Positions 20,262-63,467 of a stretch of 64,000 nt of DNA are shown piece after piece. The stretch is from an uncultured Methylomirabilota bacterium (GTDB lineage: Bacteria > Methylomirabilota > Methylomirabilia > Methylomirabilales > 2-02-FULL-66-22). The stretch spans positions 192,001 through 256,000 of the forward strand of contig CAWJSJ010000001.1 of the NCBI GenBank assembly GCA_963845565.1. The letters are read 5' to 3'. Both the position numbers and the translations under genes were made by a program. The number at the start of each line of letters is the position of its first letter. Position 1 is the first letter of the stretch. The notes beneath the pieces are model-generated. The model was not told where the DNA came from. It ran no database searches and saw only the letters and a program-made list of their open reading frames with translations.

Positions 20262-20412
20262 ATCCGACCTGTCGGAGCCCCTCCGAGATATCGTGCGTTT
20301 CCCGTGACTTTCACAAATGAGACAACGCACGAACACCCCTCCCAACCCCATGAGTCGACAGGGCTGAAACGGTGTCCGGCCACCTCGAGCGTACGGTGGA
20401 TCTGGCCTTGCA
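20262..20412 (+). promoter_or_regulatory. sigma54 cassette 3
   Basis: ATCCGACCTGTCGGAG-cccc-TCCGAGATATCGTG; CAACCCCATGAGT (20343); TGGATCTGGCCTTGCA (20397). Confidence 0.88.
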
Positions 20413-20555
20413 TATTCAGTCTGCTATAACGCCGCCCTGGCTCGGCACCTCACCCGAAAGGTGGACGCGAGGGTCGGTCTGGCGGCGGGCTCTGTCGCGC
20501 GAGACCGCGCGAGGGGCGAATGAAAGGCCGCCGCAGGCGGCGGAGGGGCAGGGCC

Positions 20556-20816
20556 ATGGCGCTTGACATGTTCGTGATGTGGGTTGTTGCGGGGCTGATT
20601 GCCGGCTACGTGGCCGGGCACGTCATGAAGGAGGGCGGGTACGGGCTGGCTGGGGACCTCATCCTCGGGGTTGTCGGCAGCATGGTGGGGGGCTGGCTCT
20701 TCTCTGTCTCGAGGATCTCGCCGGACGCGGGGCTGGCCGCGTTGACCATCATCGCGTTCATCGCGGGGATCGCCATGATCTTCGCTCAGCATAGGCTCTG
20801 GCCCATGCACGCCTGA
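20556..20816 (+). CDS. GlsB/YeaQ/YmgE (transglycosylase-associated) membrane protein
   Basis: WVVAGLIAGYVAG...GYGLAGDLILGVVGSMVGG. Confidence 0.85.
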   Translation: MALDMFVMWVVAGLIAGYVAGHVMKEGGYGLAGDLILGVVGSMVGGWLFSVSRISPDAGLAALTIIAFIAGIAMIFAQHRLWPMHA

Positions 20817-20909
20817 AGACCGTGCCCCACATCTCAGTGGGCCGTGTCGCGACGGAGCGCGCACGGCGACCGGCCCTGGCTTGGGTGCCAGATGACTGAG
20901 GATCCGACA

Positions 20910-21215
20910 ATGCCGACCTACGAGTATCAATGCCGCTCGTGCGCGCAACGGTTTGAGGCCCGCCAAAGCATCATGGCCTCTCCGCGCAGGCGGTGCCCGC
21001 GCTGCGGGAAGAAGGTGGACCGCTTGATCAGCGCGGGCGCCGGGTTCCTGTTCAAGGGGTCGGGCTTCTACACGACTGACCATCGCTCGAAACCCTACCA
21101 GGAGGCGGCGAAGAAGGACCAGGAGGGAGGGAGCAAGGTTCGCCCCGCCGAGAATGCCCCCTCGAAAAGTGCCGCAGGTCCGAAGATGGACGCAGGCCAT
21201 GGGCAGCAGACGTGA
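20910..21215 (+). CDS. FmdB-family zinc-ribbon protein
   Basis: MPTYEYQCRSC...CPRCG...FKGSGFYTTD. Confidence 0.88.
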   Translation: MPTYEYQCRSCAQRFEARQSIMASPRRRCPRCGKKVDRLISAGAGFLFKGSGFYTTDHRSKPYQEAAKKDQEGGSKVRPAENAPSKSAAGPKMDAGHGQQT

Positions 21216-21555
21216 GACCGAACGCCGCGGTGGCGTCGGCGCCGCCATTCCGGCGACGGAGCCGCCCACGTCTCCGGTCCGAGCGGGGGCGGCTCCGTCG
21301 CCGTGCCGGTGGCCCACGCTGGCGATGGTGAGTCGGGCGATCGGTGACGTCGACGCCGCCTTGGCGGCGGATCCCCTCTTCCATCGCTGCCCGGACGGAC
21401 ACCAGGGGAGGATCGACGTGCGCTATTGGTACCTGCGGCCGCTGGAATTCTCCTGTCGCCACTGCGCCGAAGGCGGACGCGTCTGCGTGGTCGACCCACG
21501 GACCGTGGTCTGTCGCCACCGGACCGGACACCCCGTCCTGGAGGGATAGAGCGCC

Positions 21556-23436
21556 ATGGACAAAAAGCACATCGTGTCGGTGTGGTACTTCCTCGCCGCC
21601 TTTCTCCTCCTGATGGCGCTGCGGGACTACGTCTTTGCGCCGCACGTCGATACCCTCTCATACGGGGAGTTCAAGACCCTGGTGGAGAAGGGGAAGGTCA
21701 GCGAACTGGCGATCGGCGCGCAGGTCATCTCGGGGCGCCTGAAGGTGGATGGACTCGCGGGGCTCCTCCCACCGGCACGGGTCGAGGCGTTGGCCAAGGC
21801 CGGGACAGCCGATCAGCAGTTCGTGACGGTCCGGGTGGACGACCCCGCGCTCGTCCACGATCTGCAGCAAGCGAATGTCAACTTCCGGGGGGAGGTGACG
21901 AGCACCTGGCTCCCGACCTTGCTGGGCTGGCTGATCCCCATGGGGATCTTCTTCCTCATCTGGCGCTACGCCCTCAAGAAGATGGGGGGCGGTGGGGGCC
22001 TGGGTGGGCTCATGACGCTCGGAAAGAGCAAGGCCAAGGTCTATGTCCAGAAGGACACGGGGGTGACCTTCAACGACGTTGCCGGCATTGACGAGGCCAA
22101 GGCCGAGCTGGTCGAAGTCGTCGAGTTCCTGAAGACGCCGGAGCGCTTCCAGCGGCTGGGCGGGAAGATCCCGAAGGGGGTCCTCCTGGTCGGCGTCCCC
22201 GGGACGGGAAAGACGCTGCTGGCGAAGGCCGTGGCGGGCGAGGCCAAGGTGCCCTTCTTCAGCCTGAGCGGCTCGGACTTCGTCGAGATGTTCGTCGGGG
22301 TGGGCGCCGCGCGGGTCCGGGACCTGTTCGCCCAGGCGGTCACGCATGCGCCGAGCATCATCTTCATCGACGAGCTGGACGCCCTGGGCAAGGCCCGGGG
22401 CATGAACCCCATGGGGGGCCACGACGAGCGGGAGCAGACGCTGAACCAGCTCCTGGTGGAGATGGACGGCTTCGAGACCAACAAGGGCGTCATCATCATG
22501 GCGGCCACCAACCGGCCGGAGATCCTCGACCCGGCCCTGCTCCGGCCTGGCCGGTTTGACCGCCAGGTCCTGGTGGACCGGCCGGACCTCAAGGGGCGCG
22601 AGGCCATCCTCCGAGTCCACGCCAAGGGGGTGACGATTGGCCCGGAGGTCGATCTGGCCGCGATCGCCGCCAAGACGTTCGGCTTCGTCGGGGCGGATCT
22701 GGCGAACATCGTGAACGAGGCCGCCCTCCTCGCCGCCCGCCAAGGCAAGGAGGCGGTCGGGAAAGCTGATTTCGACGAGGCGATCGACCGGGTGGTCGCC
22801 GGGCTGAAGAAGACCCGGGTGATGAGCGTGAAAGAGCGGGAGATCGTGGCCACTCACGAGGCCGGACACGCGGTGGCAGCGGAGCTCCTGCCGGGGACCG
22901 ACCCGGTGGCGAAGGTCTCCATCGTCTCGCGGGGGATTGCCGCGTTGGGGTACACGCAGCAGCTCCCGACCGAGGATCGGTATCTCATGACCCGTTCGGA
23001 GCTGTTCAACCGGCTCTGCGTCCTCCTGGCCGGCCGGACCGCCGAGGAGATCGCCTTCAGCGATGTCTCGACCGGCGCCCAGAACGACCTCCAGCGGGCC
23101 ACCGACCTGGTGCGGCACATGGTGGCCCAGTACGGCATGAGCGAGAAGGTCGGCCTGATGACCTACGATGGAGGCGGACGGACGGCCCTCCTCCCGGGTC
23201 TGCCCCAGCCCCGTGAGCACAGTGAGGAGACGGCGCGACTTATCGATTCCGAGGCGAGCCGGATCCTGGTCGAGGCGCACGTAAAGGTCAGTGCCCTCCT
23301 CACGGAACAGTGGAGCGTCGTCGAACAACTCGCGCGCCGACTCCTAGAGAAGGAGGTGGTGGAGCGGGAGGAGCTGCAGACCTTGCTGGCCGGCGTGAAG
23401 CTCTCCGGGGACGGCGGCCGGGAGCGGGAGGCGTAA
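21556..23436 (+). CDS. ftsH: ATP-dependent zinc metalloprotease FtsH
   Basis: Two TM segments, [27 protein letters not shown]. Confidence 0.96.
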
Positions 23437-23518
23437 GGCAGGCGCCAAGAGTATCGGGGTGGGTCGGTGGTGGAAACGGAACGAGATCCGGACGGATGTC
23501 CGGAGAGGAGCAGGAACC

Positions 23519-23731
23519 ATGGCAACAGGCACGGTCAAGAAGCTGGTCCGGGATCGAGGTTTCGGGTTCGTTCAGGGGTCAGATGGCGTGGAGCTCTTCT
23601 TCCACCGGTCGGCAATCCTGGGAGAGGGATTCGACGCGCTGACGGAGGGACAGGCCGTCGAGTTCGATGTCGAGAAGGGAGACAAGGGACCGCGAGCGGC
23701 GCACATGAAAGTGAGCGCCCCCAGCATCTAG
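23519..23731 (+). CDS. Cold-shock domain protein
   Basis: MATGTVK...RGFGFV...LFFHRSAI...KGPRA. Confidence 0.93.
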   Translation: MATGTVKKLVRDRGFGFVQGSDGVELFFHRSAILGEGFDALTEGQAVEFDVEKGDKGPRAAHMKVSAPSI

Positions 23732-23871
23732 ACGGGCGAGGTCTCGAAACTTCACGGGGTTTGCCCTCGGTCGTTCGGCTGTGCGAGGGGTCGGGGGCAA
23801 TACCCCGGTGGGGTTGGGTCGGAGCGTGACCATGGGAAAGGAAGACGGTCTTCCTCGAAAAGGAGGTTGCG

Positions 23872-24258
23872 ATGAAAGTCAAGGAACTCATGCGAACGTC
23901 TGTGGCGAAGGTCTCGCCCGTCGCGACCGTGAGGGAGACACTCTCGATGATGGATGACTCCGGTGTCAGCTCGCTGCCCGTTGAGGATGCGGAGGGTTGC
24001 CTCTTGGGTGTGGCGAGACTCGCCGTACTTTCCCGGGCGCTCGCCGATGGAAGCGTCGCGTCCTCCGCCGCTGTCGGGGATGGTCTGTCGTCCCATCTCG
24101 TCACGGCCACGCCGGAGATGGATGCGGCCAGAGTGGCCGAGATGATGCGCGACAGAGGGGTCGACGACATCATGGTCGTCGAGGGCAGGTACCTCGTTGG
24201 CGCGCTGTCCCTGGCCGAAGCCGGGAAGGCGGACACGGGTCTACGCCCCGCGTTGTGA
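23872..24258 (+). CDS. CBS-domain protein
   Basis: MKVKELM...VSSLPV...LLGV; AGGAGG RBS. Confidence 0.8.
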   Translation: MKVKELMRTSVAKVSPVATVRETLSMMDDSGVSSLPVEDAEGCLLGVARLAVLSRALADGSVASSAAVGDGLSSHLVTATPEMDAARVAEMMRDRGVDDIMVVEGRYLVGALSLAEAGKADTGLRPAL

Positions 24259-24324
24259 CCGTCTGCGGGTCAGTGAGCGACTCCAGTACTGCGGCGACGT
24301 TCGTGACCGACGAGGAGGCGCCGA

Positions 24325-25836
24325 ATGCAGCGGGGCAGCGGACGACATCAGCACGACCTGATGGCCATCGCGCGACGGGTGATGGTCGAGCGTGACTTGC
24401 TCCCGGACTTTTCGTCGGCCGTGATGGCGGAAGTCGCGCGGAGCCAGGCGGCGCCCGCCAACGGAGCGCCGAAGATGCGGGATCTGCGGGGGCTTCTCTG
24501 GTGCTCGATCGACAACGATGATTCGCGGGACCTCGATCAGCTCACCTTGGCAGAACCGATCGGCGGTGGGGTAGTACGGATCCTGGTGGCAGTCGCGGAC
24601 GTGGACGCAACGGTCGCGCAGGGCTCGGCGACGGACGGCCACGCGCGGCACAACACCACCTCGGTGTACACGGCCGCCGCGATGTTCCCCATGCTGCCCG
24701 AACCGCTATCGACTGATCTCACGTCCCTCGGCGAAGGCGAGGATCGGGTGGCGCTGGTGGTGGAGATGGCGGTGAACGCCGACGGAACCGTGGGCGCGCC
24801 AAACCTCTATCGCGCCGTGGTGAAGAATCGCGCCAAGCTGGCCTATGTTGCGGTCGCCGCGTGGCTCGACGCGACGGGACCGATCCCGAGTCGGGCGGCC
24901 ATCGTGCCGGGCATGGAGGCCCAGCTCCGGCTCCAGGACCAGGTCGCGCAACGGCTGCGGGAGGTGCGACACCACCACGGGGCGTTGAGCCTGGAAACCA
25001 TCCAGGCGCGGCCGGTGTTCCAGGGCGAGACACTGACTGACCTGGAGGTGGAGCATCCCAACCGGGCTCGGGCGCTGATCGAGGACTTCATGATCGCGGC
25101 GAACGGCGTGACGGCGCGCTACCTGGAGGCCCAGGGCTATCCATCGCTCCGCCGGGTCCTGCGCTCCCCGGAGCGGTGGGCGCGAATCGTCGAGCTGGCC
25201 GCCGGGTTGGGGACATCCCTGCCCCCGCAACCGGCCGCGGCTGCCCTGGACGCGTTCTTGACGGTGCGCCGCCAAGCCGATCCACTGCGGTTCCCCGACC
25301 TGTCGCTAGCCATCGTCAAGCTGATGGGGCGCGGGGAGTACGTCGTGGAGCTTCCCGGCCAGACGGCGCCCGGACACTTCGGGTTGGCCGTGCAAGCCTA
25401 CACCCATTCCACGGCACCCAACCGTCGCTTTCCTGATCTGATCGCTCAGCGGCTTCTGAAGGCGGCGCTGGCGCACAGCCCGGCCCCGTACGCAAACGCG
25501 GAGCTGCAGGAGCTGGCCCAGCACTGCACCGAGGCGGAGGACCGCGCGAACAAGGTCGAGCGCCAGGTGGGGAAATCGGCCGCCGCGCTCCTGCTGGAGC
25601 CTCGGATCGGAGAGCAGTTCGACGCGATCGTCACGGGGGCGTCGCAGAAGGGGACCTGGGTCCGCATCCTCCGGCCGCCGGTGGAAGGCAAGCTGGTGCA
25701 TGGCGCCGACGGGCTGGACGTCGGCGACCAGTTGCAGGTCACGCTGATTGGGACCGATGTCGAGCAGGGCTATATCGATTTCTCACGGGTGGGCGGCTCG
25801 CCGGCCATGAGCCTTCGGTCCCGGCCGACCCGTTGA
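24325..25836 (+). CDS. RNB-domain (RNase II/R family) ribonuclease
   Basis: SIDNDDSRDLDQ, IEDFMIAAN, HFGLA..YTHSTAPNRRFPDL. Confidence 0.9.
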   Translation: MQRGSGRHQHDLMAIARRVMVERDLLPDFSSAVMAEVARSQAAPANGAPKMRDLRGLLWCSIDNDDSRDLDQLTLAEPIGGGVVRILVAVADVDATVAQGSATDGHARHNTTSVYTAAAMFPMLPEPLSTDLTSLGEGEDRVALVVEMAVNADGTVGAPNLYRAVVKNRAKLAYVAVAAWLDATGPIPSRAAIVPGMEAQLRLQDQVAQRLREVRHHHGALSLETIQARPVFQGETLTDLEVEHPNRARALIEDFMIAANGVTARYLEAQGYPSLRRVLRSPERWARIVELAAGLGTSLPPQPAAAALDAFLTVRRQADPLRFPDLSLAIVKLMGRGEYVVELPGQTAPGHFGLAVQAYTHSTAPNRRFPDLIAQRLLKAALAHSPAPYANAELQELAQHCTEAEDRANKVERQVGKSAAALLLEPRIGEQFDAIVTGASQKGTWVRILRPPVEGKLVHGADGLDVGDQLQVTLIGTDVEQGYIDFSRVGGSPAMSLRSRPTR

Positions 25837-26079
25837 ATGGATTGGGGACGCTTTTCTGACCGGCCGGAGGTTCGATTCCATCCCGACCGGACCGATGTCG
25901 CACCAGCGCGGAGCATTTCAACATCGAGTCCCGTCTCGGGAGATCCCGGCTCCAGCACTCTCGCTGTGTGTGCCTCCAACAGGTTACATCGAATGCTGGC
26001 GCCGGGCGGCTGCCAGGGACTGGGAATCCGAGGCTCGGGGTGGCCCTGGGACCGGCTGGTCCTGAACTGGTGGAACGCC

Positions 26080-26727
26080 GTGGAGAGCCTCCAGGGATTC
26101 GTCGAACAGTTCACATACCTCGGCGTGTTCGCCGTGCTCGTCCTGGGCAGCCTGGGGGTGCCTATCCCCGAGGAGATGGCCATCATCGCGGCCGCCGTCC
26201 TGAGCCACGAGGGGCTCGTCCGGTGGTGGCTGGCGCTTCTCATCTGTCTCCTGGGTGTGCTTTCCGGCGATATGGCGCTCTACTGGGTCGGTCGGCACTG
26301 GGGGGCCGACGTCCTCGCCTGGCGCGCGGTCCGGCTCGTGCTGACGCGCAAGCGGGAGCAGTGGCTGAAGGCGGCGTATCGGCGGCATGCCCTGAAGACC
26401 ATCGTCACGGCGCGGCATGTCATGGGACTCCGCGCCGCGGCTTTTCTGACGGCGGGCATGGCGCGCGTGCCGTTCTGGAAGTTCGTCGTGGCCGACGCGG
26501 GCACCGCGCTGGTCGGCGTCCCGCTTTTGTTTGGATTGGCCTTCTTCTTCACGGATCAGATCCAAGCCATCGTGGCCGACGTGCACCGGGTGGAGCGCTG
26601 GCTCGCGCTCGCCGGCCTCGTGGGGCTCATGGTGGTGCTGGGCGTCGGCGTGTGGCGATGGAAACGGCGTCTCGCGACGGAGAAGCTTGAGGGGGAACGG
26701 ACCGAGACGCCTGCAGTTCGCCCGTGA
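26080..26727 (+). CDS. DedA-family membrane protein
   Basis: GVPIPEE, SGDMALYWVGR, ARHVMGLRAAAFLTAG. Start codon approximate. Confidence 0.85.
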   Translation: MESLQGFVEQFTYLGVFAVLVLGSLGVPIPEEMAIIAAAVLSHEGLVRWWLALLICLLGVLSGDMALYWVGRHWGADVLAWRAVRLVLTRKREQWLKAAYRRHALKTIVTARHVMGLRAAAFLTAGMARVPFWKFVVADAGTALVGVPLLFGLAFFFTDQIQAIVADVHRVERWLALAGLVGLMVVLGVGVWRWKRRLATEKLEGERTETPAVRP

Positions 26728-26778
26728 CTCCCGCTTCCAGATGCCCCCGCCCGCGCGCTGCCGCTGGACACCGCGCCC

Positions 26779-26928
26779 CTCCGACCCCTCGGAGCCGCTC
26801 CGAAATCTCGGACGAGTCCCGTCTGCTGATCCGCGCGGATGTGGCCGTCGGATCCCATCCAACCACGCGATTAGTCCGGACGAATGCCCCTTCGGCCACC
26901 TTGGGAGCGGGGTGGATCTGGCCTTGCA
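26779..26928 (+). promoter_or_regulatory. sigma54 cassette 4
   Basis: CTCCGACCCCTCGGAG-ccgc-TCCGAAATCTCGGA; CAACCACGCGATT (26860); TGGATCTGGCCTTGCA (26913). Confidence 0.88.
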
Positions 26929-26998
26929 TACTCTGTAGCCGAGGGGGCCGTAGGGAAGCCGGAACGCCGGCGCAGCCGCCGAAGAAGGCAGGAGGGCC

Positions 26999-27259
26999 AT
27001 GACTCTGGAACTGTTCGTGCTGTGGGCCATCGGGAGACTGCTGGCCGGCTGGCCGACCGGGTGGATCGTGAATGGCAGCGGGTACGGACTGATGGGCGAC
27101 ATGGCCCTCGGGCTCGTCGGTAGCCTCTTGGGGAGCTGGATTGTCCTGGCGCTTGGGGTGTCGGTGGGCGCGGCGCTCCTCGCGGTAGGTGGCGGTGCGG
27201 TCATCGGAGCGGTCCTGCTGATCGGCGCCCAGCGCGTGCTCGAGCACGTGCATGCTTAG
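26999..27259 (+). CDS. GlsB/YeaQ/YmgE paralog
   Basis: GYGLMGDMALGLVGSLLG; similar to 20556..20816, both end in HA. Confidence 0.8.
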   Translation: MTLELFVLWAIGRLLAGWPTGWIVNGSGYGLMGDMALGLVGSLLGSWIVLALGVSVGAALLAVGGGAVIGAVLLIGAQRVLEHVHA

Positions 27260-27328
27260 GGACGTGAATGGTGGTGAGAGGAGCGAACGGTTCTCACGGG
27301 GCTGGTCGTTCGCTGTGGAGGAGAAGAG

Positions 27329-27472
27329 ATGACAAGATTAGTGAGTCGCATGCGGATCGGCGTCGTCCTTTGTTGCCTCGTGGCGATCTTCATGGCGGGG
27401 TGCGCCACCGCCCGCGGCGTTGGGCAGGACACGCAATCGCTCGGGCGCAGCATCGAGAAGAAAGCGCAATAG
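27329..27472 (+). CDS. Entericidin EcnA/B-family lipoprotein (47 aa)
   Basis: Manual translation: ...AIFMAGC-ATARGVGQDTQSLGRSIEKKAQ; lipobox; GGAGGAG RBS. Confidence 0.85.
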   Translation: MTRLVSRMRIGVVLCCLVAIFMAGCATARGVGQDTQSLGRSIEKKAQ

Positions 27473-27545
27473 CGGGGACGGCAAGATAGGCGCGGCGCTG
27501 GCCTGGGCCCATACACGGTCCGTCACTGGGCGGAAGGAGGTTGTC

Positions 27546-27698
27546 ATGGGAACGATTCTGCTCATCGTATTGGTGCTGTTCGTTGTCGGGGCGCTCCCGA
27601 CCTGGCGGCACAGTAGCACCTGGGGGTACGGCCCGAGTGGCGGGCTCGGTCTGGTCCTTCTGATCCTGTTGGTCCTGGTCCTGACCGGGCGCCTCTGA
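27546..27698 (+). CDS. DUF3309-family small membrane protein
   Basis: MGTILLIVLVLFVVGALPTWRHSSTWGYGPSGGLGLVLLILLVLVLTGRL. Confidence 0.88.
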   Translation: MGTILLIVLVLFVVGALPTWRHSSTWGYGPSGGLGLVLLILLVLVLTGRL

Positions 27699-27747
27699 CG
27701 AGGCCGCCCTCGTCACACCTTATGCCGCCTACACGAGGAGATCTGTC

Positions 27748-28038
27748 ATGCGAAGCTATGAAGCGTTTCTCTTGGGCGCGATCACGGGCGGCGTCGCCGT
27801 CTGGGTTTGGGGGAAGGAGATCACGGGCTACCTGCAGGAGCAGACCCGCGGGGTGCGCACGCAGGCCGCGGAGCGCATCCACGCGGTCGAAGAGAGCGCG
27901 GAGCAGCTGCTCGACCGCGGCGGGGATGCCCTGCGGCGCGCCGAGGAGGTTCTGCAGGATACCAAGGCACACGTCCGCGAGACGCTCCAGAAGGGGCAGG
28001 ACGCGATTCGTCCCGCCCCGACAACCGGCGGAGTATGA
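27748..28038 (+). CDS. YtxH-like small helical protein
   Basis: FLLGAITGGVAV N-terminal anchor followed by amphipathic helix. Confidence 0.6.
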   Translation: MRSYEAFLLGAITGGVAVWVWGKEITGYLQEQTRGVRTQAAERIHAVEESAEQLLDRGGDALRRAEEVLQDTKAHVRETLQKGQDAIRPAPTTGGV

Positions 28039-28242
28039 CCAAACCGTCCACCAGGTGAGCTGAAGGTGGGCGCGCGGACATCGGTCCGGGGATCGGGCCG
28101 CTGCCCACGTCGTCTTACTGTGCGGTGCGTAAAGTAGGCGACACTCCGGCCGGGACCGCACAGTCCGGGGGGGCAGCGCGGCGGGCGGTGGAGCCATTGT
28201 TCTGTGCTGCGTAGTATGTCCGCTCATTCATAGAGGTCCAAA

Positions 28243-28446
28243 ATGATGCGACACTTTCTGGCTGTGATTGTCTTTGGACTCGTCATCGCGTTCGGCGCGG
28301 CCGCGTGCGACAAGGGCCCGATGCAAAAGACGGGCGAGAAGATCGACCGCGCCACGGGTCAGGACAAGGTGATCGGAACGGGTCCCCTCGAGCAGGCGGG
28401 CCGGAACGTTGACCGGGCTGTGAAAGACCTCAAGAAGCTCGACTGA
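28243..28446 (+). CDS. Small lipoprotein
   Basis: AAAC lipobox followed by DKGPMQKTGEKID...GPLEQAGRNVD internal repeat. Confidence 0.75.
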   Translation: MMRHFLAVIVFGLVIAFGAAACDKGPMQKTGEKIDRATGQDKVIGTGPLEQAGRNVDRAVKDLKKLD

Positions 28447-28565
28447 AGCGTCAGGGTTGTCGGTGGGGTCAAGGTGATTTTCGCACAGCGCGTGTTCGAG
28501 TGCGCGCAAGTCTGCGGACGCACGCCGCATCGGCGGGACGCGACCGCCCCACAAGGAGGAAGATC

Positions 28566-29285
28566 ATGAAACGGTACACGATGTGGAACACAGTCCGGAC
28601 TGCTATGACCGCCCTCGCGCTGGGCGGACTGATCCTCGGCCTGGCGCCGTCGGCCTGGGCCGACGATGCCCAGGATGCGACCCAACTCGTCGACAAAGCG
28701 CGTCTGACGTTTGAAGCCTTCATTGGGGACAAAGACATGGGGCCGGCCCTCCGGTCGCTCGTCAAGGGAGCCAAGGGTGTGCTCGTCTATCCCCAGATCC
28801 TCCGCGGCGCCTTCATCGTCGGGGCCTCGGGTGGCAACGGCGTGTTCCTGGCCAAGGATGACAAGGCAGACGTCTGGAGTGGTCCGGCCTTCTACACCAT
28901 CGGACAGGGCAGCTTCGGGCTCCAGGCCGGGGGCGATGCCTCGGAGGTCGTGCTCGTCGCTCTGACCGAGCGGGGCGTGACGGCCATGCTGGCCAACAGC
29001 GCCAAGCTCGGCGCCAACGCCAGCGTGGCGGCGGGACCAGTCGGGGCGGGGGCGGAAGCCTCCACGGCCAACATCAGCGCCGACATCCTCGCCTACTCGC
29101 GCGCCAAGGGTCTGTACGCGGGGATCTCGCTGGATGGCGCGGTGGTGGCGACCCGGGACGCCCTGAACCATGCCTATTACGGCAAGGAAGTCACCCCTAC
29201 CGACATCCTCGTCAAGCGGACGGTGAAAAACCCGCAGGCCGCTAGCTTGATCGACGCCGTGGCCAAAGTCGCCCGCGGGAAATAG
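28566..29285 (+). CDS. Ysc84/SYLF lipid-binding domain protein, secreted
   Basis: WSGPAF, GSFGLQAGG, AAGPVG, YSRAKGLYAGISLDG. Confidence 0.9.
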   Translation: MKRYTMWNTVRTAMTALALGGLILGLAPSAWADDAQDATQLVDKARLTFEAFIGDKDMGPALRSLVKGAKGVLVYPQILRGAFIVGASGGNGVFLAKDDKADVWSGPAFYTIGQGSFGLQAGGDASEVVLVALTERGVTAMLANSAKLGANASVAAGPVGAGAEASTANISADILAYSRAKGLYAGISLDGAVVATRDALNHAYYGKEVTPTDILVKRTVKNPQAASLIDAVAKVARGK

Positions 29286-29303
29286 GCCGTTGTCAAAGAA
29301 TAA

Positions 29304-29699
29304 ATGGAGACATCGATGCTGTATGTGACCGACACCCCCAAGGATGTGGCAACCGCCACGCGGGATCTGGAAGAAGCGGTGAAGCGCAACAAGTTCGGCG
29401 TCCTGCATGTGCACGACCTCCAGAAAACGCTCAAGGAGAAGGGCGTGGACTTTCCGAACGCCTGTCGGATCCTGGAGGTGTGCAACCCGCAGCGGGCCGT
29501 CCAGGTGCTGACGGGGAACATGGGAATGAACATGGCCCTGCCTTGCCGGATCTCTGTCTATCAGGACGGGGGGAAGACCAAGATCGGCATGATTCGGCCG
29601 ACCGCCCTCCTGGCGCTCTTCCCCGGGGCCGCCGCCCTCAAAGCGGTCGCGGAGGACGTGGAGCGGGAGACCATACAGATGATTGACGAGGCGCGCTAA
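29304..29699 (+). CDS. DUF302 protein
   Basis: FGVLHVHDLQKTL...ILEVCNP...LPCRISVY. Confidence 0.88.
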   Translation: METSMLYVTDTPKDVATATRDLEEAVKRNKFGVLHVHDLQKTLKEKGVDFPNACRILEVCNPQRAVQVLTGNMGMNMALPCRISVYQDGGKTKIGMIRPTALLALFPGAAALKAVAEDVERETIQMIDEAR

Positions 29700-29715
29700 A
29701 GGAGGAGAAGAAGAG

Positions 29716-29934
29716 ATGAACGCAATCAAGCTCGCGGCAATCGCGTTGATTGTGGTCGGCATCCTGGGGTTGGCGTATGGCAGTTTCAGTTACACCAAGG
29801 AGACCCACGGGGTCAAGCTGGGTTCGCTCGAGCTGTCGGTGAAGGACAAGCAGACGGTCAACGTCCCCGTCTGGGCTGGCGTGGGGGCGATAGTGGCCGG
29901 CGGCGTCCTGCTGTTTTGGCGCAAGCAGAGCTAG
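29716..29934 (+). CDS. Small two-TM membrane protein
   Basis: GILGLAYGSFSYTKETH...VNVPVWAGVGAI; GGAGGAG RBS. Confidence 0.8.
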   Translation: MNAIKLAAIALIVVGILGLAYGSFSYTKETHGVKLGSLELSVKDKQTVNVPVWAGVGAIVAGGVLLFWRKQS

Positions 29935-30099
29935 GCCCTGCGTCAGAGCCGCCTGACGACCCCTCGTGCAGCGGACGCGTGTGCTGCCGGGGCGTACAGG
30001 ACCGATTCGAGCCTCCAAAGTGCTCGATCTCAAGTTGCCCACCCGGGAAGCGCGCACGAACGAACTCGCGCCTCGGACACCCCGATGATCGCGGCCCCT

Positions 30100-30250
30100 C
30101 TCCGACTGATCGGAGCGCATCCGATATTTCGTACCGCTCCCACCGGTCTCTCCGCGCAAGGGTCGCCGCAGCATCATGAGGAAACTCGCGATTCGAAAGT
30201 GGCGGGACCTCGTTTGGCAACCTGAGAAGCGGAGTGGATCTGGCTTTGCA
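30100..30250 (+). promoter_or_regulatory. sigma54 cassette 5
   Basis: CTCCGACTGATCGGAG-cgca-TCCGATATTTCGTA; GAAACTCGCGATT (30181); TGGATCTGGCTTTGCA (30235). Confidence 0.88.
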
Positions 30251-30338
30251 TCTTCGGCGGACAACAGGTGGGTTGGATACGCAAGGCACGGAGCGAACTT
30301 GTCGTAGAATCCGCCACCGCGCTGCAAGGAGCACGAAC

Positions 30339-31409
30339 GTGAACTTCCAACAACGAAGTGCGGAAGGACGAAAGGATCGACGTGCACCAACCGCGACACT
30401 CCGGTCTGCCAAGTCCATGTGGAAACGGATCGTGTCCCGCTATGAGAAGCCGTCCCTGAGCCGCAGCGTGTGGCAGGCGGCGAACACGTTCGTCTCCTAC
30501 GGGGTTCTGTGGTATCTGATGCAGCGAAGCGTGGCGATTTCCCCCTGGATCACGCTGGCCCTGGCGCTCGTTGCCGCGGGTTTTCTGGTGCGCCTCTTTA
30601 TCATCTTTCATGACTGCGGCCACGGGTCGTTTTTCCAGTCACGGAAGGCCAACGACACTCTGGGCGTGATCACCGGGATCCTGACCTTCACACCCTACTA
30701 CCAGTGGCGGCACAAACATGCCATTCACCACGCCACCTCCAGCGACCTGGACCGGCGCGGCACCGGCGATGTCTGGACCATGACGGTGCGAGAGTACCTC
30801 GATGCCTCTGGCTGGCGGCGTTTTGCCTATCGGCTAACACGCAACCCTCTGGTGTTGTTCGGCATTGCCCCGCTCCTCTTGCTGGTGTTCGGACAGCGGT
30901 TCCCGTGGCGAAAGGCAGACCGACGAGAGCGCACCAACGTCCTGTGGACGAATCTGGCAATCCTCGGGATGGCCGCGCTGCTCACCTGGTGGATGGGCCT
31001 CAAGGCGTACCTGATGATCCAATTGACGGTCCTGATGATCGCAGGTTCCGTCGGGGTGTGGTTGTTCTACGTACAGCATCAGTTCGAGACCACCTATTGG
31101 GAGCGGCGCGGTCAATGGGACTTCGTGACGGCGGCCATCCGGGGGAGTTCCTTTTACAAGCTTCCCAGGGTGTTGCAATGGTTCACGGGCAACATCGGAT
31201 TCCATCACGTCCATCACCTGAGCCCGGGGATCCCCAACTATAATCTGGAGAAGTGCCACAAAGCGGATCCGCTCTTTCAGGACGTCGAGCATGTCACGCT
31301 ACTCTCCAGCCTGAGATCTCTTACCTACCGCCTGTGGGATGAACAGCGACAGAAATGGGTCGGCTACGGTCACGTGAGAGCGCTGCGCCGCGGATGGCCA
31401 ACCGGCTGA
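30339..31409 (+). CDS. Membrane fatty acid desaturase (Bacillus Des-like)
   Basis: His boxes HDCGH, HAIHH, HHVHH; FYVQHQFE. Confidence 0.92.
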   Translation: MNFQQRSAEGRKDRRAPTATLRSAKSMWKRIVSRYEKPSLSRSVWQAANTFVSYGVLWYLMQRSVAISPWITLALALVAAGFLVRLFIIFHDCGHGSFFQSRKANDTLGVITGILTFTPYYQWRHKHAIHHATSSDLDRRGTGDVWTMTVREYLDASGWRRFAYRLTRNPLVLFGIAPLLLLVFGQRFPWRKADRRERTNVLWTNLAILGMAALLTWWMGLKAYLMIQLTVLMIAGSVGVWLFYVQHQFETTYWERRGQWDFVTAAIRGSSFYKLPRVLQWFTGNIGFHHVHHLSPGIPNYNLEKCHKADPLFQDVEHVTLLSSLRSLTYRLWDEQRQKWVGYGHVRALRRGWPTG

Positions 31410-32312: not shown

Positions 32313-32406
32313 TAGGCATGGGAGAGAGGACGCCGACCGGAGGGAGCGAGGGGCGCGGGTCCCGCGAGGTGCCGAGGCGTGAGGTTGTCGGAGGGAGGTG
32401 GGGGTC

Positions 32407-53367: not shown

Positions 53368-53518
53368 ATCCGACGGGTCGGAGTTGGTCCGAAATCTCGG
53401 GGGGGTCCGGTCGGTGACCCCACGGAGATGTTGCGGCGACATCTTATCCAACCAGTTGATTACACGGGGCCGGGACCGTGTCAGGCCCATCACCCCGCGG
53501 GGTGGTTCTGGTGTTGCA
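53368..53518 (+). promoter_or_regulatory. sigma54 cassette 9
   Basis: ATCCGACGGGTCGGAG-ttgg-TCCGAAATCTCGGG; CAACCAGTTGATT (53449, exact reverse-complement match to the IHF consensus); TGGTTCTGGTGTTGCA (53503). Confidence 0.9.
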
Positions 53519-53595: not shown

Positions 53596-54150
53596 ATGGC
53601 ACGCGTAATGATGATTGCAGTGTTGGTGCTGAGTCTGGGGCTGCTCGCGGCCCCCGGGTTCGCCGCCGAGAGCACGGCGACGAAGGCTGGCACGACGGCC
53701 ACCGGCGAGGTCACGGACTCCTGGCTCACGTTCAAGACCAAGCTGGCCTTGCTGGCCGACGAGCGGGTCAGCAGTAACGACGTGAGCGTGAAGACCGTGA
53801 AGGGCGTGATCACGCTCCACGGGAAGGTGGGCAGTGCCGAGGAGCAGAAGGCCGCCGAGGAGATAGCACTGAAGATCGAGGGGCAGAAGAAGGTGGTCAA
53901 CCAATTGACGGTGGTACCGACGGCGCAGCGGAAGATGGTCGATCGCCAGGACGACCAGATCGTGACGGACGTCAAGCAGGCACTCACGAAGGAAGCGTCC
54001 CTGAAGAAGGCCACCATCGACGTCCGGGCCGAGAAGGGGATCGTCACCCTGACGGGGAAGGCGCCGTCCCTCGCGACGAGCGTCCGCGCCTCCGAGGTGG
54101 CCCGGCGGGTGTCCGGCGTGCGCGCCGTGCGGAACGAGCTGACGTTGTAG
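53596..54150 (+). CDS. Dual-BON domain (OsmY-like) periplasmic protein
   Basis: Signal peptide; TDSWLTFKTK...GVITLHG...VVNQL and a second BON ending GVRAVRNEL. Confidence 0.92.
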   Translation: MARVMMIAVLVLSLGLLAAPGFAAESTATKAGTTATGEVTDSWLTFKTKLALLADERVSSNDVSVKTVKGVITLHGKVGSAEEQKAAEEIALKIEGQKKVVNQLTVVPTAQRKMVDRQDDQIVTDVKQALTKEASLKKATIDVRAEKGIVTLTGKAPSLATSVRASEVARRVSGVRAVRNELTL

Positions 54151-56347: not shown

Positions 56348-56532
56348 TGACGTGTCGTCGACGGAAGGCTGCGACTGCCGGTGCGTCGCCAGGACGGCGG
56401 CTCCGGTTGCAGGACGCTGGTGGCGCATTCGGACGGGCTGCCTTGAACGAAGGCTGGCGATGGTGGCGTTGCTCGGCTACAATAAATCCTAGACCAATTG
56501 GCGAGGGAGGAGTTCAGGCAGGGAGGTGCCAG

Positions 56533-57973
56533 ATGGGACTCTTTGGGTGGTTGGCCACCCACTGGACGCCGGCATATGAATACCGCGAGTACTTTGGGAA
56601 CGAAATGGAGTACATCGCCTGGGAATCCACCGCTGTTGGGGGCAGGCGAGGGTTTTTGCTCGGTTTTCCGGCCGGGGCACTGCTGACGGTGGCGGTCATC
56701 GGCGGCGCGGTGATGACCGGACTCTACACCCCGCCTTCCCAAACAGTGGCGTCGAGCGAGGGACAGCGAGAGCCCACCGCGTCGCAAGCCACGACCAAGG
56801 AGCTGGACGCCCTGCGGGCAGAGAACCAGGGCCTGAAGAAACAAGTGGTGCAAGTGAACACCGCGTCGCAAGCCACGACGAAAGAGCTGGACGCCCTGCG
56901 GGCAGAGAACCAGGGCCTGAAGAAACAAGTGGTGGAAGTGAACACCGCGTCGCAAGCCACGACCAAGGAGCTGGACGACGCTGCGGGCAGAGAACCAGGG
57001 GCTGAAGAAGCAAGTGATGGACGTGAACACCGCGTCGCAAGCCACGACCACGGAGCTGGACACCCTGCGCGCAGAGAACCAGGGGCTGAAGAAACAAGTG
57101 ATGCAAGTGAGGGCCGCGGGGTCGCAAGCCACGACCAAGGAGCTGGACGCGCTGCGGGCAGAGAGCCAGGGCCTGAAGCAGCAAGTGATGCAGGTCAACG
57201 CCGCGTCGCAAGCCACCACCAAGGAGCTGAACGCGCTGCGGGACGAGAACCAGGGCCTAAAGCAGAAAGTGGTGCAAGTGAACACCGCGTCGCAAGCCAC
57301 GACACAAGGAACTGGAGGCGCTGCGGGCACGAGAACCAGGGCCTGAAGCAGCAAGTGATGCAGGTCAACACCGCGTCGCAAGCCACGACCAAGGAGCTGA
57401 ACGCGCTGCGGGACGAGAACCAGGGGCTGAAGAAGCAAGTGACGGACGTGAAGGCCACCGCGTCGCAAGCCAGGGCGAAGAGGAAGTGCGGAAGTGAAGC
57501 GCGTGAGCGCCACGCTGGCCGCGCTGCGGGCAGAGAACCAGGGCCTGAAGAAGCAAGTGATGGCAGGTGAACCACCGCGTCGCAAGCCACGACGAAGGAG
57601 CTGGACGCGCTGCGGGCAGAGAACCAGGGCCTGAAGAAGCAAGTGATGCAAGTGAAGGCCGCGTCGCAAGCCACGACGAAGGAGCTGGACGCCCTGCGGG
57701 CAGAGAACCAGGGCCTGAAGAAGCAGGTGATGCAAGTGAACACCGCGTCGCAAGCCACGACGAAGGAGCTGGACGCGCTGCGGGCAGAGAACCAGGGCCT
57801 GAAGAAGCAAGTGATGGACGTGAAGGCCGCAGCGACCTGCCCGCCGTGCCAGCCGCAGGCGCCGACAAAGGCCCGACCCCCGGCCCAAGCTGTGGCCGCA
57901 CCACCCCAGGTGTGGTCGCCACCGGCGCCGCGGGGAAATCTACTGGCCTGGAGTAGGGCCGTCGGATCGATGA
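56533..57973 (+). CDS. TM-anchored long coiled-coil repeat protein (several indels)
   Basis: GGAGGT RBS; MGLFGWL...TM...12 repeats of 28 aa...TCPPCQP...WPGV.PSDR. Confidence 0.75.
56779..57828 (+). repeat. 84-bp (28-aa) tandem repeat, 12 units
   Basis: Unit ASQATTKELDALRAENQGLKKQVxxVNT starts at 56779, 56863, 56947, 57032, 57119, 57203, 57287, 57373, 57460 (longer variant), 57577, 57661, 57745. Confidence 0.95.
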
Positions 57974-58072
57974 GCCCATTGGCGTAAGGCAGGCTTGGTC
58001 GCCGTTAAGATAATGGTACCCACCTACGACGACTGGATAGTAGTCCTTTAGGGGTAAATCGGACCCGGTGTC

Positions 58073-58362
58073 CTCGACGAGATCGCCGAGCTCCCGCTGG
58101 AGCTGCAGGTCAAGCTGTTGCGGGGCCTGGAGAGCGGGCAGCTGGAGCGGCTCGGCAGCACCAAGACCCTCACGGTGGATGTCCGGGTGATCGCCGCGAG
58201 CAACCGCGGCCTGGCCGCCCTGGTCGCCACCGACAGCTCCACCTTCCGGGTGTCGGTGGGGACGGCCCCCGCGGCCCGGGCGGCGCCGCCGCGCTGCTCG
58301 GCCTCAACCCCACCACCCTCGTGTCCCGCCTCAAGAAGCTCGGCCTCACGCGTCCCCGCTGA
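58073..58362 (+). pseudogene. Remnant of a sigma54 enhancer-binding protein (FhlA-like HTH)
   Basis: LDEIAELPLELQVKLLR...ERLGSTKTLTVDVRVIAASNR, then an internal deletion, then GPGGAAALLGLNPTTLVSRLKKLGL. No GAFTGA loop or N-terminus. Confidence 0.88.
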
Positions 58363-58374: not shown

Positions 58375-58525
58375 CTCCGACCGATCGGAGAGGCTCCGAT
58401 ATATCGTGCGTTTCCCCTCGATGTCTCCGCTGAGATCTTTCCGCCGCATCCCAGCCAACCTCCTGATTCCACCGAGCGGGGACTCGCCTCGGGCCCCCCG
58501 GCGCGCGGCTGGAACTGGCTTTGCA
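58375..58525 (+). promoter_or_regulatory. sigma54 cassette 10
   Basis: CTCCGACCGATCGGAG-aggc-TCCGATATATCGTG; CAACCTCCTGATT (58456); TGGAACTGGCTTTGCA (58510). Confidence 0.9.
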
Positions 58526-58671: not shown

Positions 58672-58746
58672 ATGAGTTCGATCGTGTACCTGGTCGGCGC
58701 GGTGGTCATCATTGGCGTCGTGCTGAAGATGCTGGGCGTCTATTAA
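58672..58746 (+). CDS. 24-aa membrane microprotein
   Basis: MSSIVYLVGAVVIIGVVLKMLGVY; strong GGAGG RBS; first ORF after cassette 10. Confidence 0.7.
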   Translation: MSSIVYLVGAVVIIGVVLKMLGVY

Positions 58747-58808: not shown

Positions 58809-59811
58809 ATGACACGGGGAATGATGATTGCGGTGGTGGTGCTGAGTCTGGGGCTGCTCGCGGCCCCCGGGTTCACCGCCCAGGAGACGGCCGGGGCGGC
58901 CAGGCGCGACGGCTCACCGGCGAGGTCACGGACTCCTGGCTTACCCTCAAGACCAAGCTGGCCTTGCTGGGCGACGAACGGGTGAGCAGTACACGACGTG
59001 AGCGTGAAGACCGTGAAGGGCGTGATCACGCTCCACGGGAAGGTGGCCAGTGCGGAGGAGCAGAAGGCCGCCGAGGAAATCGCCCTCACGATCGAGGGAC
59101 ACAAGAAGGTGGTCAACCAATTGACGGTGGTGCCGAGGCGGAGCGGAAAATGGTCGATCGGCAGGACGACCAGATCGTGACGGACGTCAAGCAGGGGATC
59201 AAGAAGGATGCGTCCCTGAAGAAGACCGACATCGACGTGCGCGCCGAGAAGGGGATCGTCACGCTGACGGGGAAGGCGCCGTCGCTGGAGACCAGCGTCC
59301 GCGCCTCTGAGATGGCCCGCCGGGTGTCCGGCGTGCGCGCCGTGCGGAACGAGCTGGTCGTGCCAGCGCCGGGTCCAGACGGCCCCGGCGCCCGGCCGGT
59401 CGCGGCCCGCGGCGACGACCGCGCGCGTCGACCGCGTCGAGGCCCGCATCACCATGCTGCATGCCACGCTCAACATCACCCCGGCCCAGGAAGAGCTCTG
59501 GACGAACGTCACCCAGGTGATGCGGGACAATGCGCACACCATGGACGCGCTCACGACAGGCCCGGGCCGACCAGGCCACGACCATGACCGCGGTCGAGGA
59601 TCTCAACTCCTATACCGAGATCACCAAGGCCCATGCCGAGGGCCTCACGAAATTCGTCCCCGCCTTCGAGGCGCTCTATGCCAGCATGTCGGACGCGCAG
59701 AAGGCCGAGGCGAATACCATGTTCCGCGGGCACCAGCGCCGCCCCACGGCGGCGAAGGCGCCGATGCCCAAGAGCCCCGCGATCGCGACGAACGCCGCGT
59801 CCATCAAATAG
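58809..59811 (+). CDS. Dual-BON paralog apparently fused to an LTXXQ/Spy-like domain (multiple indels)
   Basis: Near-copy of 53596..54150 with no stop after NEL, then ARITMLHATLNITPAQEELW...LYASMSDAQK. Confidence 0.7.
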
Positions 59812-61330: not shown

Positions 61331-61413
61331 CCGGGGGCTGACGGGCGGGGGCGTGCGGGACGCGCCCCCGCCTACTGCCGTGCCCGGGGCGCCACCGCGC
61401 TGACAAAGACGAA

Positions 61414-61536
61414 GCGATCTACGAGCACGGCCTGCTCCGAATCGATGCGCCCTTCAAAGATCCGATGGAAGATGCTATGAAGGTCGCCATCAAAGCAGGT
61501 GGCGTGGAAACCAAGACCAAGAAAATCGAAGCCTGA
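61414..61536 (+). pseudogene. Hsp20/alpha-crystallin C-terminal fragment
   Basis: AIYEHGLLRIDAPFKDPMEDAMKVAI resembles AxYxNGLLxI; no 5' part. Confidence 0.6.
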
Positions 61537-62461: not shown

Positions 62462-62595
62462 AATCAACCCGTTGTGGCGCGAAGCGCTCGCGGCGCCGCA
62501 TGCCTTCCGATTCGTCCGCCCCGACCGCGCCAGTCGCTTCGCCCTGGCTCGCCGCCGCCCCCGGAGCCCGCGCCAGCGCGCGAACGCGTCCCAGA

Positions 62596-62745
62596 CTCCG
62601 AGATCTCGGAGCCGCTCCGATCCCTCGGGCGGGTGTCGCCGGTCCCTCCGCGGCACAGGTGTCGCCGCCTCCCACCCAACTGTGTAACTCCACAGGGCAG
62701 AGACCTCCCAAGGCGCGGGAGGAGCGCGATGGATCTCGTATTGCA
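62596..62745 (+). promoter_or_regulatory. sigma54 cassette 11
   Basis: CTCCGAGATCTCGGAG-ccgc-TCCGATCCCTCGGG; CAACTGTGTAACT (62677); TGGATCTCGTATTGCA (62730). Confidence 0.88.
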
Positions 62746-62884
62746 CGTGTCCTGAGGGTAAGGGCCGTTTCCTCGCGCACAACGCTCACGGGCAGGAGCG
62801 GGGGGAGCAGGCCGGGACCGGCGCGTCCGCCGTGCGGCGCACGGAGACGCCGGAGCGAGATCTTCCGGGAGGGAGGTGGAACAC

Positions 62885-62971
62885 ATGGACCTCACAACGA
62901 TTGTGATCGTGCTGCTCGTCGTGGCGGTGCTGGGCGGGGGCGGTTGGGGATACTCGCGGTGGCGCCGGTAA
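62885..62971 (+). CDS. 28-aa membrane microprotein
   Basis: MDLTTIVIVLLVVAVLGGGGWGYSRWRR; GGAGGT RBS. Confidence 0.8.
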   Translation: MDLTTIVIVLLVVAVLGGGGWGYSRWRR

Positions 62972-63152
62972 CCGTAACCCTCGCCGCGGAGAGATCTGCC
63001 CCCGGGGCGGCCCGCCACCGTCCTGTGGAGTCGGAGTGTCGTGCGCCCTGGGGGGCGAGAGACACGCGGCCGCCGCCTCGTGGCCGTGTCGGGGCCAGAG
63101 GGGGCGCTGGCTGCGTGTCGGGACGAACTAACCTTTAAAGGAGGGCGAACCC

Positions 63153-63467
63153 ATGAAGACAGCGAGACCGATGGTGCGAACGCTCCTGGTACTGCTGGCG
63201 CTGGTCGTGATCGCCGGCTGTGCATCCACCCGGACCCAGGAAAGCGCGGGGCAGTACACGGATAGTTCCGTGATCACGGCGAAGGTCAAGGCCGCGATCT
63301 TCGACGACAAGACCCTGAAGGTGTTGGACATCAACGTGGAGACCTTCAAGGATGTCGTCCAGTTGAGCGGCTTCGTGAATTCGGCTGAGACCAAGAACCA
63401 TGCGGCCGTGGTGGCCGGCCGCGTCAGCGGCGTGAAATCCGTCAAGAACGATCTGATCATCAAGTAG
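63153..63467 (+). CDS. Single-BON lipoprotein
   Basis: IAGC lipobox; DSSVITAKVKA...INVETFKDVVQLSGFV...VKNDL. Confidence 0.92.
   Translation: MKTARPMVRTLLVLLALVVIAGCASTRTQESAGQYTDSSVITAKVKAAIFDDKTLKVLDINVETFKDVVQLSGFVNSAETKNHAAVVAGRVSGVKSVKNDLIIK

Follow-up and report, generated by a model that had tools for sequence, protein, structure and literature searches.

The window analysed here is a 64,000-nucleotide stretch of DNA from an uncultured Methylomirabilota bacterium (positions 192001-256000 of contig C1 in the 5.36-Mb genome G000), and the studied feature within it (20262..63467) holds genes headed by copies of a short promoter-like module, hereafter referred to as the cassette. The control of general stress responses is usually ascribed to RpoS, SigB and EcfG, three factors of the sigma-70 family; csbD and ytxH are targets of SigB, and osmY, ecnB and otsBA are targets of RpoS. 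A preliminary description of the window had read the genes behind the cassettes as a general-stress set that is wired to sigma-54 instead of these factors, and that is run by one enhancer-binding protein.

A repeat search of the window recovered two motif families situated at a fixed mutual distance. The cassette comprises an enhancer (TCCGA-N4-TCGGA-N5-TCCGA-N4-TCG), an integration host factor (IHF)-type site and a -24/-12 box (TGGATC-N5-TTGCA), the distance from enhancer start to box being 132-134 bp in every copy found by a matrix scan of the genome. The window contains 11 copies (nine of them inside the studied feature), with nine on the plus strand (enhancer starts 16458, 20263, 26780, 30101, 32163, 49992, 53369, 58376 and 62597) and two on the minus strand (16155 and 53319). 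The matrix scan of G000 returned 22 cassettes, and 24 with a looser matrix (22 within C1:208.0-331.0 kb, a span of 123 kb that we call the island, and two on contig C2). The cassettes of the window and the features associated with them are the following (window coordinates):

15500-15916: 138-aa membrane protein of no known family, led by the minus-strand cassette 16155
16008-16155, minus strand: cassette (enhancer 16155-16123, IHF-type site 16076, box TGGATTCGGCCTTGCA at 16023-16008)
16420-16444, plus strand: activator-gene remnant (last codons and stop), directly before cassette 16458
16458-16605, plus strand: cassette leading a CheR-PAS gene (16899-18389) and a PAS-kinase-receiver gene (18386-20146)
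20263-20412, plus strand: cassette (IHF-type site 20343, box TGGATCTGGCCTTGCA at 20397-20412)
20556-26727, plus strand: genes behind cassette 20263, i.e. GlsB/YeaQ-like (20556-20816), zinc-ribbon protein, FtsH paralogue (21556-23436), Csp (23519-23731), CBS protein, RNB nuclease and DedA/VTT
26780-26928, plus strand: cassette (IHF-type site 26860, box 26913-26928)
26999-29934, plus strand: genes behind cassette 26780, i.e. GlsB/YeaQ-like, entericidin (27350-27472), DUF3309 (27546-27698), unnamed 96-aa membrane-anchored open reading frame (ORF), lipoprotein, Ysc84, DUF302 and small membrane protein
30101-30250, plus strand: cassette leading a fatty-acid desaturase (30417-31409)
32163-32312, plus strand: cassette (box TGGATCTGGTGTTGCA at 32297-32312)
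32398-40470, plus strand: genes behind cassette 32163, i.e. DUF3309-like ORF of 26-29 aa, CsbD (32635-32814), 268-aa repeat lipoprotein, second DnaK (33913-35832), PRC-barrel, MltF-like protein and broken OtsA/B
49992-50140, plus strand: cassette leading a 74-aa lipoprotein (50245-50469) and a DinB/YfiT protein (50566-51036)
53170-53319, minus strand: divergent cassette that leads a DUF3309-like ORF (52935-53096), with an alpha/beta hydrolase (51557-52378) farther along
53369-53518, plus strand: cassette with the exact IHF consensus (CAACCAGTTGATT at 53449), leading a two-BON protein (53596-54150)
58071-58362, plus strand: internally deleted activator copy (AAA fragment and helix-turn-helix (HTH) end, DNA 86-94% identical)
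58376-58525, plus strand: cassette directly behind the activator remnant, leading a 24-aa membrane ORF (58672-58746)
about 58809-59811, plus strand: frameshifted BON-LTXXQ gene, downstream of cassette 58376
62597-62745, plus strand: cassette leading a DUF3309-like ORF (62876-62971) and a BON lipoprotein (63171-63467)

No cassette was returned by a control scan of the reversed and complemented genome, and ten other enhancer-box spacing windows yielded none or one each. A GG-N10-GC (-24/-12) box is present in 24/24 genome cassettes, and its TGGATC element is confined to the cassette (where it is kept in at least 80% of the dereplicated metagenome copies), whereas the other intergenic sigma-54 boxes of G000 are canonical TGGCAC/T (e.g. 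before P-II-like and flagellar-type genes). The IHF consensus, which the preliminary description had overlooked, falls in a single column 54 bp upstream of the -24 T, with a mean of 1.9-2.1 mismatches against a background of 6.6; sites with at most two mismatches occur in 16 of the 24 own copies (in a first count, in 10/15 own and 28/44 dereplicated metagenome copies). Mean identity among the copies amounts to 0.70-0.83 for enhancer and box, 0.44-0.53 for the spacers and about 0.3 for the flanks; since the spacers are more alike than the flanks the copies share ancestry, and the motifs and their spacing look selected from this pattern of conservation. Behind 23/24 own cassettes a same-strand ORF begins within 420 nt with a loose ribosome-binding motif at its start, and the cassette gene at C2:978757 has no such motif, yet was called as a gene.

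Transcription from sigma-70-family promoters is what the preliminary description had named as the case against it; a consensus sigma-70 promoter is absent from 20001-39500 (2.0 +/- 1.6 in shuffles), this being a weak test at 66% GC. The EcfG motif GGAAC-N16-CGTT precedes none of 10 cassette-led genes (a pattern that also missed four alphaproteobacterial plasmid csbD genes), a loose SigB pattern precedes one of the 10, where it overlaps the -12 box, and a terminator scan remained at chance level. RNA contigs from 5 of 23 listed runs (X1 and X6-X9) were not used as evidence of expression or of start sites, neither of which can be read from them; contigs from four libraries cover parts of cassette-led genes, and those of X6 and X9 also span the enhancer at about 26780. 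Taken together, the enhancer, IHF-type site and -24/-12 box at fixed spacing agree with the sigma-54 type first proposed, and we hold it to be highly probable that the cassettes act as sigma-54 promoters.

As for the genes behind them, Pfam confirmed from the original gene list the entericidin, DUF3309, CsbD, three BON, two PRC, Ysc84, desaturase, FtsH, DnaK, Csp and DinB entries. The two GlsB/YeaQ genes stay below the Pfam cut-off in the window (E ~1e-3) and have a metagenome homologue above it; the supposed haloperoxidase is an alpha/beta hydrolase by Pfam; and the name 'YtxH-like' for the ORF at 27748-28038 has to be withdrawn (no Pfam or NCBIfam match), the real YtxH lying 432 bp past the window end. 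The island holds a general-stress marker set (CsbD, BON/OsmY, GlsB/YeaQ, entericidin, YtxH and trehalose), with otsA/B broken in the assembly near 40310-40470; a BON gene (~58809) and a PRC gene (~60313) are likewise split across frames, and these frameshifts may be assembly errors. The first genes behind the cassettes of G000 encode mostly tiny membrane or exported proteins. The island dnaK, groEL and ftsH are extra (second or third) copies, and CIRCE (the controlling inverted repeat of chaperone expression) was found at the core groESL region on C2 and nowhere in the island. The only CsbD and all three DUF3309 hits of G000 lie in the island, and BON domains and a YtxH homologue are also present outside it. 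The island proteins that were scanned included neither a catalase nor Dps or Ku.

Several of these products have peculiarities of their own. A family of 24-aa hydrophobic ORFs stands directly behind four cassettes, ahead of BON genes (window 58672-58746; G000:C1 ~261532, 269207 and 291360). A 91-aa protein with cysteine pairs (G000:C1:321445-321720; five to six paralogues lie elsewhere) is without a match in Pfam or NCBIfam, and its family is also found behind a TCCCA-type cassette in genome G025. The 268-aa lipoprotein between csbD and dnaK (32934-33740) contains a 249-bp internal repeat and likewise matches nothing in Pfam or NCBIfam, and the CheR-PAS gene behind its cassette (16899-18389) encodes a Glu-rich coiled coil with a 42-bp repeat; feedback of the regulon on its own signalling through this cassette-led CheR-PAS is possible.

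Full-length bacterial enhancer-binding protein (bEBP) matches number 31 in G000, and only one of them lies in the island (C1:288347-290479, outside the window): an FhlA-like protein of PAS-GAF-AAA-HTH architecture with the loop GAYTGA. A cassette begins 14 bp past the stop of this intact activator gene, and remnants of its 3' end precede the window cassettes 16458 and 58376 (2/11 in the window, 21/111 among metagenome cassettes). The orthologue copies with an intact 3' end (in seven congeners) all have an enhancer within about 200 bp of the stop and all but one have the box as well, and distant FhlA-like genes carry behind their stop an enhancer of their own, usually with a canonical box. Across these genes the recognition helix is paired with particular half-sites (KPTTLES with TCCGA, KPTTLEA with TCCCA/TCCAA, NPSTLRS with CGCGA, PATTLES with CCCGA, KRTTL with TGTCA/G), a series into which E. 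coli FhlA (KRTTL) and the hycA-hypA intergenic DNA fit. It is because the half-site changes with the recognition helix that we assign the activator to the cassettes (the strongest, though indirect, evidence), and we consider it very likely that the island activator serves them.

The activator gene ends a run of cheB/cheR, kinase, kaiC, two kaiB, PAS and activator genes (G000:C1:280606-290479), whose kaiC scores above the NCBIfam cut-off and is the only one found in G000. Over the first 530 bp, the activator gene matches the start of the upstream kinase at 98% identity, and the coiled coil and PAS of the activator look like a recent copy of the kinase N-terminus; 77 of 86 close homologues measure about 500-540 aa and have no kinase-like N-terminal part. 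The structure model of the GAF domain (predicted local distance difference test score 91) matches generic GAF folds at 12-20% identity and the GAF consensus has no cysteine, and therefore no ligand is implied. On contig C5 (643555-646900), two further FhlA-like genes stand in tandem, the second of them broken (frameshifts, stop). Behind it come a TCCAA-type enhancer, a box resembling -24/-12 and an ABM-like gene, which make up a sister module.

The genome encodes one rpoN (above the TIGR02395 cut-off, RpoN box intact), five IHF/HU genes and ten sigma-70 proteins: RpoD, FliA, seven extracytoplasmic function (ECF) sigmas and one group-2 sigma of 285 aa. The latter (G000:C1:984405-985262, between degQ and an HD-GYP response regulator) reaches 218 bits against an RpoS cut-off of 379 (TIGR02394), and is present in 27/27 near-complete genomes of families f1 and f4-f8 (the Methylomirabilales side) and in 0/50 of families f9/f10; five f9/f10 genomes (G164, G168, G187, G245 and G248) contain extra long RpoD-like paralogues, with 2-4 sigma-70 region-3 matches beyond RpoD. 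No SigB-family sigma exceeded the TIGR02980 cut-off in five genomes. The sole PhyR_sigma2 match of G000 is a 191-aa ECF sigma without receiver domain (NepR was not searched for). The claim that sigma-54 acts instead of SigB, RpoS and EcfG is supported as regards SigB and PhyR, neither of which was found in the genomes searched, and not as regards RpoS, an RpoS-like group-2 sigma being present; the island stress set would probably be run independently of the classic stress sigma factors.

Cassette and activator occur together in 7/20 congeners, and the seven with an activator orthologue (at least 74%) are the seven with the pattern, so that this pair is not lineage-wide and the first description is not supported on this point. 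Among 230 other genomes of the phylum the pattern was seen once (a single match at longer spacing, probably chance); single matches in G139 and G013 were treated as chance. A metagenome scan gave at least 123 loci (~410 estimated) with 129 unique cassettes at a spacing of 131-136 bp (138 matches); the first ORFs behind 100 of these comprised 16 GlsB-like, 15 BON, about 18 DUF3309-like, 14 of the unnamed 91-aa family and 7 ABM. With congener matches left out, a GTDB scan returned at least six exact-cassette loci, four of them titled as other phyla, which we do not count as spread: the genes of L021 are 57-80% identical to those of G000, L022 and L023, whose contigs measure 4.7-6.4 kb, have the same sequence near the cassette, and the genomes behind L022, L023 and L025 have one cassette each and no activator orthologue (mis-binning or mislabelling being possible). 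A plasmid search for DUF3309 found nothing. Around the island (C1:150-400 kb) there is neither a tRNA nor a GC step (0.657 vs 0.66), and therefore no sign of recent horizontal transfer; tRNA and Rfam RNA scans of the 64-kb window gave no hits.

Two of the cassette-associated families are common in the phylum without the cassette (CsbD in 75/170 and DUF3309 in 85/251 genomes, tallies that include the unpublished G221, whose locus was excluded from the upstream test). In the sister-order families f9/f10, which we infer to be Rokubacteriales, a canonical box (at most one mismatch to YGGCAY-N5-TTGCH within 250 nt upstream) precedes csbD in 27/46 genomes (0.7 expected) and 11/17 genera, DUF3309 in 16/24 (0.3 expected) and the control gene csp in 0/23; as a baseline, 71 of 2683 operon-leading genes of G000 have such a box. 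The 46 csbD genomes (11 from one genus) scored highest among some 70 positive genomes of f9/f10, and the consensus was fixed after sight of the DUF3309 regions, so that the DUF3309 count is not blind whereas the csbD and region tests are. Methylomirabilales-side loci (three csbD, six DUF3309) were excluded from the box test; four DUF3309 loci of f4/f7 had no box under a stricter pattern. Box matches on the antisense strand (11 and 6) are in line with the presence of divergent promoters in the sister-order clusters. Over 11 sister-order genomes we counted 41 perfect boxes in 380 kb of cluster versus 3 in 400 kb of arbitrary control, and 130 versus 42 when one mismatch was allowed (G088, having no control, was excluded from this region test).

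The sister-order clusters encode CsbD, BON, DUF3309, PRC, LigD, ferritin-like, superoxide dismutase (SOD), glycogen-debranching and DUF1328 proteins, together with kinases and REC-AAA-HTH activators (the scan covered 87 of the 433 proteins called). These activators are of NtrC type and fall outside the clade of the island activator (quick tree without bootstrap). A search of 123 f9/f10 genomes for close orthologues of the island activator gave none, the best match being at 60%. As candidate enhancers, TGTCG-N6-CGACA lies upstream of f10 boxes (24 sites vs 1 across all cluster and control regions, all in f10), and YTAC-N5-GTAR is a weaker candidate in f9, occurring also in 5/23 csp controls at one mismatch. 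A link of sigma-54 to stress-type genes thus extends beyond the island, as the boxes common before csbD and DUF3309 in the sister order indicate, and the notion of one enhancer-binding protein running the set is narrowed: the FhlA-like activator is the best candidate here, and the sister order has other activators.

On balance we lean towards the view that about two dozen copies of the module would be fired together by the island activator, switching on a broad stress-protection gene set. In keeping with the general bEBP mechanism, a signal would reach the GAF/PAS region of the activator, whose dimers would occupy the tandem TCCGA/TCGGA half-sites, some 134 bp upstream, and assemble into an AAA+ ring; IHF would bend the spacer, and ATP hydrolysis would open the sigma-54 closed complex at TGGATC-N5-TTGCA. 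The output would consist of small membrane and periplasmic proteins (GlsB/YeaQ, DUF3309-like, entericidin, CsbD and BON) along with spare chaperones and proteases. The regulon likely grew as the ~150-bp module was copied before existing genes, sometimes with the 3' end of the activator. The upstream operon of CheB/CheR, kinase, KaiC, KaiB, KaiB and PAS may set the level or state of the activator, which is the weakest step of this scheme.

A number of observations weigh against the coordinated stress regulon so outlined. A conserved RpoS-like group-2 sigma is present in G000, the -24 element of the cassette is non-canonical, the activator has GAYTGA in place of the loop GAFTGA (a form shared by 86/86 close homologues), the island genes are often frameshifted, and many targets fall outside the classic general-stress set (CheR, desaturase, OmpA, ABM, DUF1207 and the unnamed 91-aa family). 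The co-occurrence of activator and cassette partly reflects physical linkage, and kin are not independent. Congener G012 (95% complete) has a shortened cassette (C45 ~61350-61480, with the spacer shorter by ~22 bp, about two helical turns, ahead of the 91-aa gene and groESL), and no activator orthologue was found in this genome. Within the 420-900 bp examined, the glsB-ftsH-csp block of G020, G013, G019 and G012 and the glsB-led operons of G044 and G072 (f7) have no -24/-12 box, and the ftsH-csp-groESL block is kept in congeners without cassettes. Outside the phylum, such a box lies within 260 nt of 0/9 plasmid csbD genes (9 of 16 matches; Alpha-, Beta- and Gammaproteobacteria and Bacillus). 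Two of the 11 sister-order genomes (G135 and G165) show no box excess, and of eight genomes inspected only two (G000 and G005) have kaiBC beside the activator, as do 0/122 short metagenome loci.

The same sigma-54/activator wiring could instead serve a single kind of challenge (a shift in redox state or oxygen, heat, or damage to proteins) as a dormancy- or low-oxygen-like regulon, in contrast to a cross-protective general stress response: a one-component GAF/PAS sensor usually reads one ligand, and among the island genes are also Usp, CBS, pieces of a P-type ATPase, extra dnaK/groESL/ftsH, dodecin and ABM, a content which we presume to resemble the DosR and lxa gene sets. We judge this unlikely, given that the first genes behind the cassettes are mostly GlsB, BON and DUF3309-like, that LigD, ferritin-like, SOD, glycogen-debranching and DUF1328 genes are further members of the sister-order clusters, and that csbD and ecnAB are direct general-stress targets in Sphingopyxis granuli (PMC7083833), namely of EcfG. 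A different reader of the same DNA is a lesser prospect still: another holoenzyme (the RpoS-like group-2 sigma or one of the seven ECF sigmas) could recognise the box, which departs from the canonical sigma-54 boxes of G000 and in which GGATC resembles a GGAAC -35 element, or another of the ~30 bEBPs could bind the enhancer. Nothing is conserved, however, at the -10 position downstream of TTGCA (identity 0.31), and sister activators keep the same geometry with canonical TGGCAC/T boxes; the enhancer, moreover, tracks the helix of the island activator, and multi-copy cassettes were seen only in genomes with this activator. It is more improbable again that the cassettes are mainly by-products of segmental duplication (activator 3' end plus promoter), many of them dead, in an island that is a decaying patchwork. 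The shared ancestry of the spacers, the activator remnants before some cassettes and the several frameshifted targets would fit such debris, but motifs and spacing were held while the spacers drifted to about 50% identity, nearly every own cassette (the 23 of 24 given above) is followed by an ORF with its ribosome-binding motif, the same first-gene families recur in metagenomes, and the frameshifts may stem from assembly.

Returning to the coordinated regulon, one of the known systems closest to it is the FhlA system of E. coli (hyc, hyp, fdhF), in which a group III GAF-AAA-HTH bEBP works with a UAS and IHF: the island activator is 41% identical over GAF-AAA-HTH and has an FhlA-type helix, and both systems place tandem short inverted half-sites upstream of a -24/-12 box (in hycA-hypA DNA, TGTCG/TGTCA...CGACA repeats and TGGCAC-N5-TTGC). 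It is nevertheless FhlA-like and not FhlA (372.9 bits vs the NCBIfam FhlA cut-off of 830), with one GAF and a variable PAS, the helix [KN]PTTLES, the enhancer TCCGA and the loop GAYTGA, and it faces about 24 promoters with stress-protection targets, as opposed to the formate/hydrogen targets of FhlA. PspF, ZraR and NorR share with the island the sigma-54 control of stress genes, and have small single-stress regulons. The regulons of RpoS, SigB and EcfG-PhyR-NepR overlap with the island in their output genes, and differ from it in that the island promoters are of the -24/-12 type with enhancer and IHF-type site, not of the sigma-70 family, and in that the genes are clustered in an accessory island.

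The nearest precedents are Nla28 of Myxococcus xanthus and DVU3305 of Desulfovibrio vulgaris. The former is a sigma-54 bEBP of starvation that belongs to a two-component system, governs development and has regulatory, metabolic and envelope genes as its targets, and for which the portions of the literature consulted name no CsbD/BON/GlsB-type set or island; the latter exerts sigma-54 stress control under the label 'general stress response, transmembrane transport' (PMC4641369), over two operons. In the text examined, the report on non-circadian KaiC systems of Pseudomonas (bioRxiv 10.1101/2022.01.26.477890) does not mention sigma-54, whereas here kaiC-kaiB-kaiB-PAS stands directly upstream of a bEBP gene in the two genomes named above. 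Likewise, the sections seen of the Ralstonia rpoN2 and Bradyrhizobium RpoNp literature describe no general-stress regulon. Our literature search found no CsbD/BON-type regulon run by sigma-54 (the supplementary target lists of PMC4371752, PMC9765219 and PMC12316311 could hold such genes), which is in line with the initial remark that the architecture was not known to be described. The bEBP regulon and the general-stress gene set are parts of known kinds; we found nothing in print on the two being paired, on such a pairing recurring with unrelated activators or on its growing as promoters are copied.

More tentatively, and with somewhat less than even confidence, we suggest that across Methylomirabilia the CsbD/BON/DUF3309/LigD-type programme may constitute a fourth general-stress architecture, based on sigma-54 and an ATP-dependent activator, that was wired repeatedly to unrelated activators (FhlA-like with TCCGA here; NtrC-like with TGTCG-N6-CGACA or YTAC-N5-GTAR in the sister order), built here by copying a 150-bp module and maybe gated by KaiBC. 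If this is true, the stress response of soil and sediment Methylomirabilia would work as an all-or-none switch, gated by ATP and set by an activator that can be exchanged, which would explain how protective genes are controlled in lineages without SigB or PhyR. Furthermore, the activator genes, each with its own enhancer behind it, offer a natural helix-to-DNA recognition code for FhlA-like proteins, and the island offers a clear case of regulon growth by promoter duplication.

Directly to the left of the island, an iron-gene cluster on the minus strand (window 10506-14768) encodes Fur and a DtxR-FeoA fusion (both by Pfam), as well as what we take, by eye and outside the Pfam scan, to be a FeoB-like gene. 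Inverted duplicated segments (42404-43083 and 56417-58054) carry an 84-bp tandem coiled-coil repeat (~28 aa), and the first of them falls within a cassette-free region of lower coding density (window 41-49 kb).

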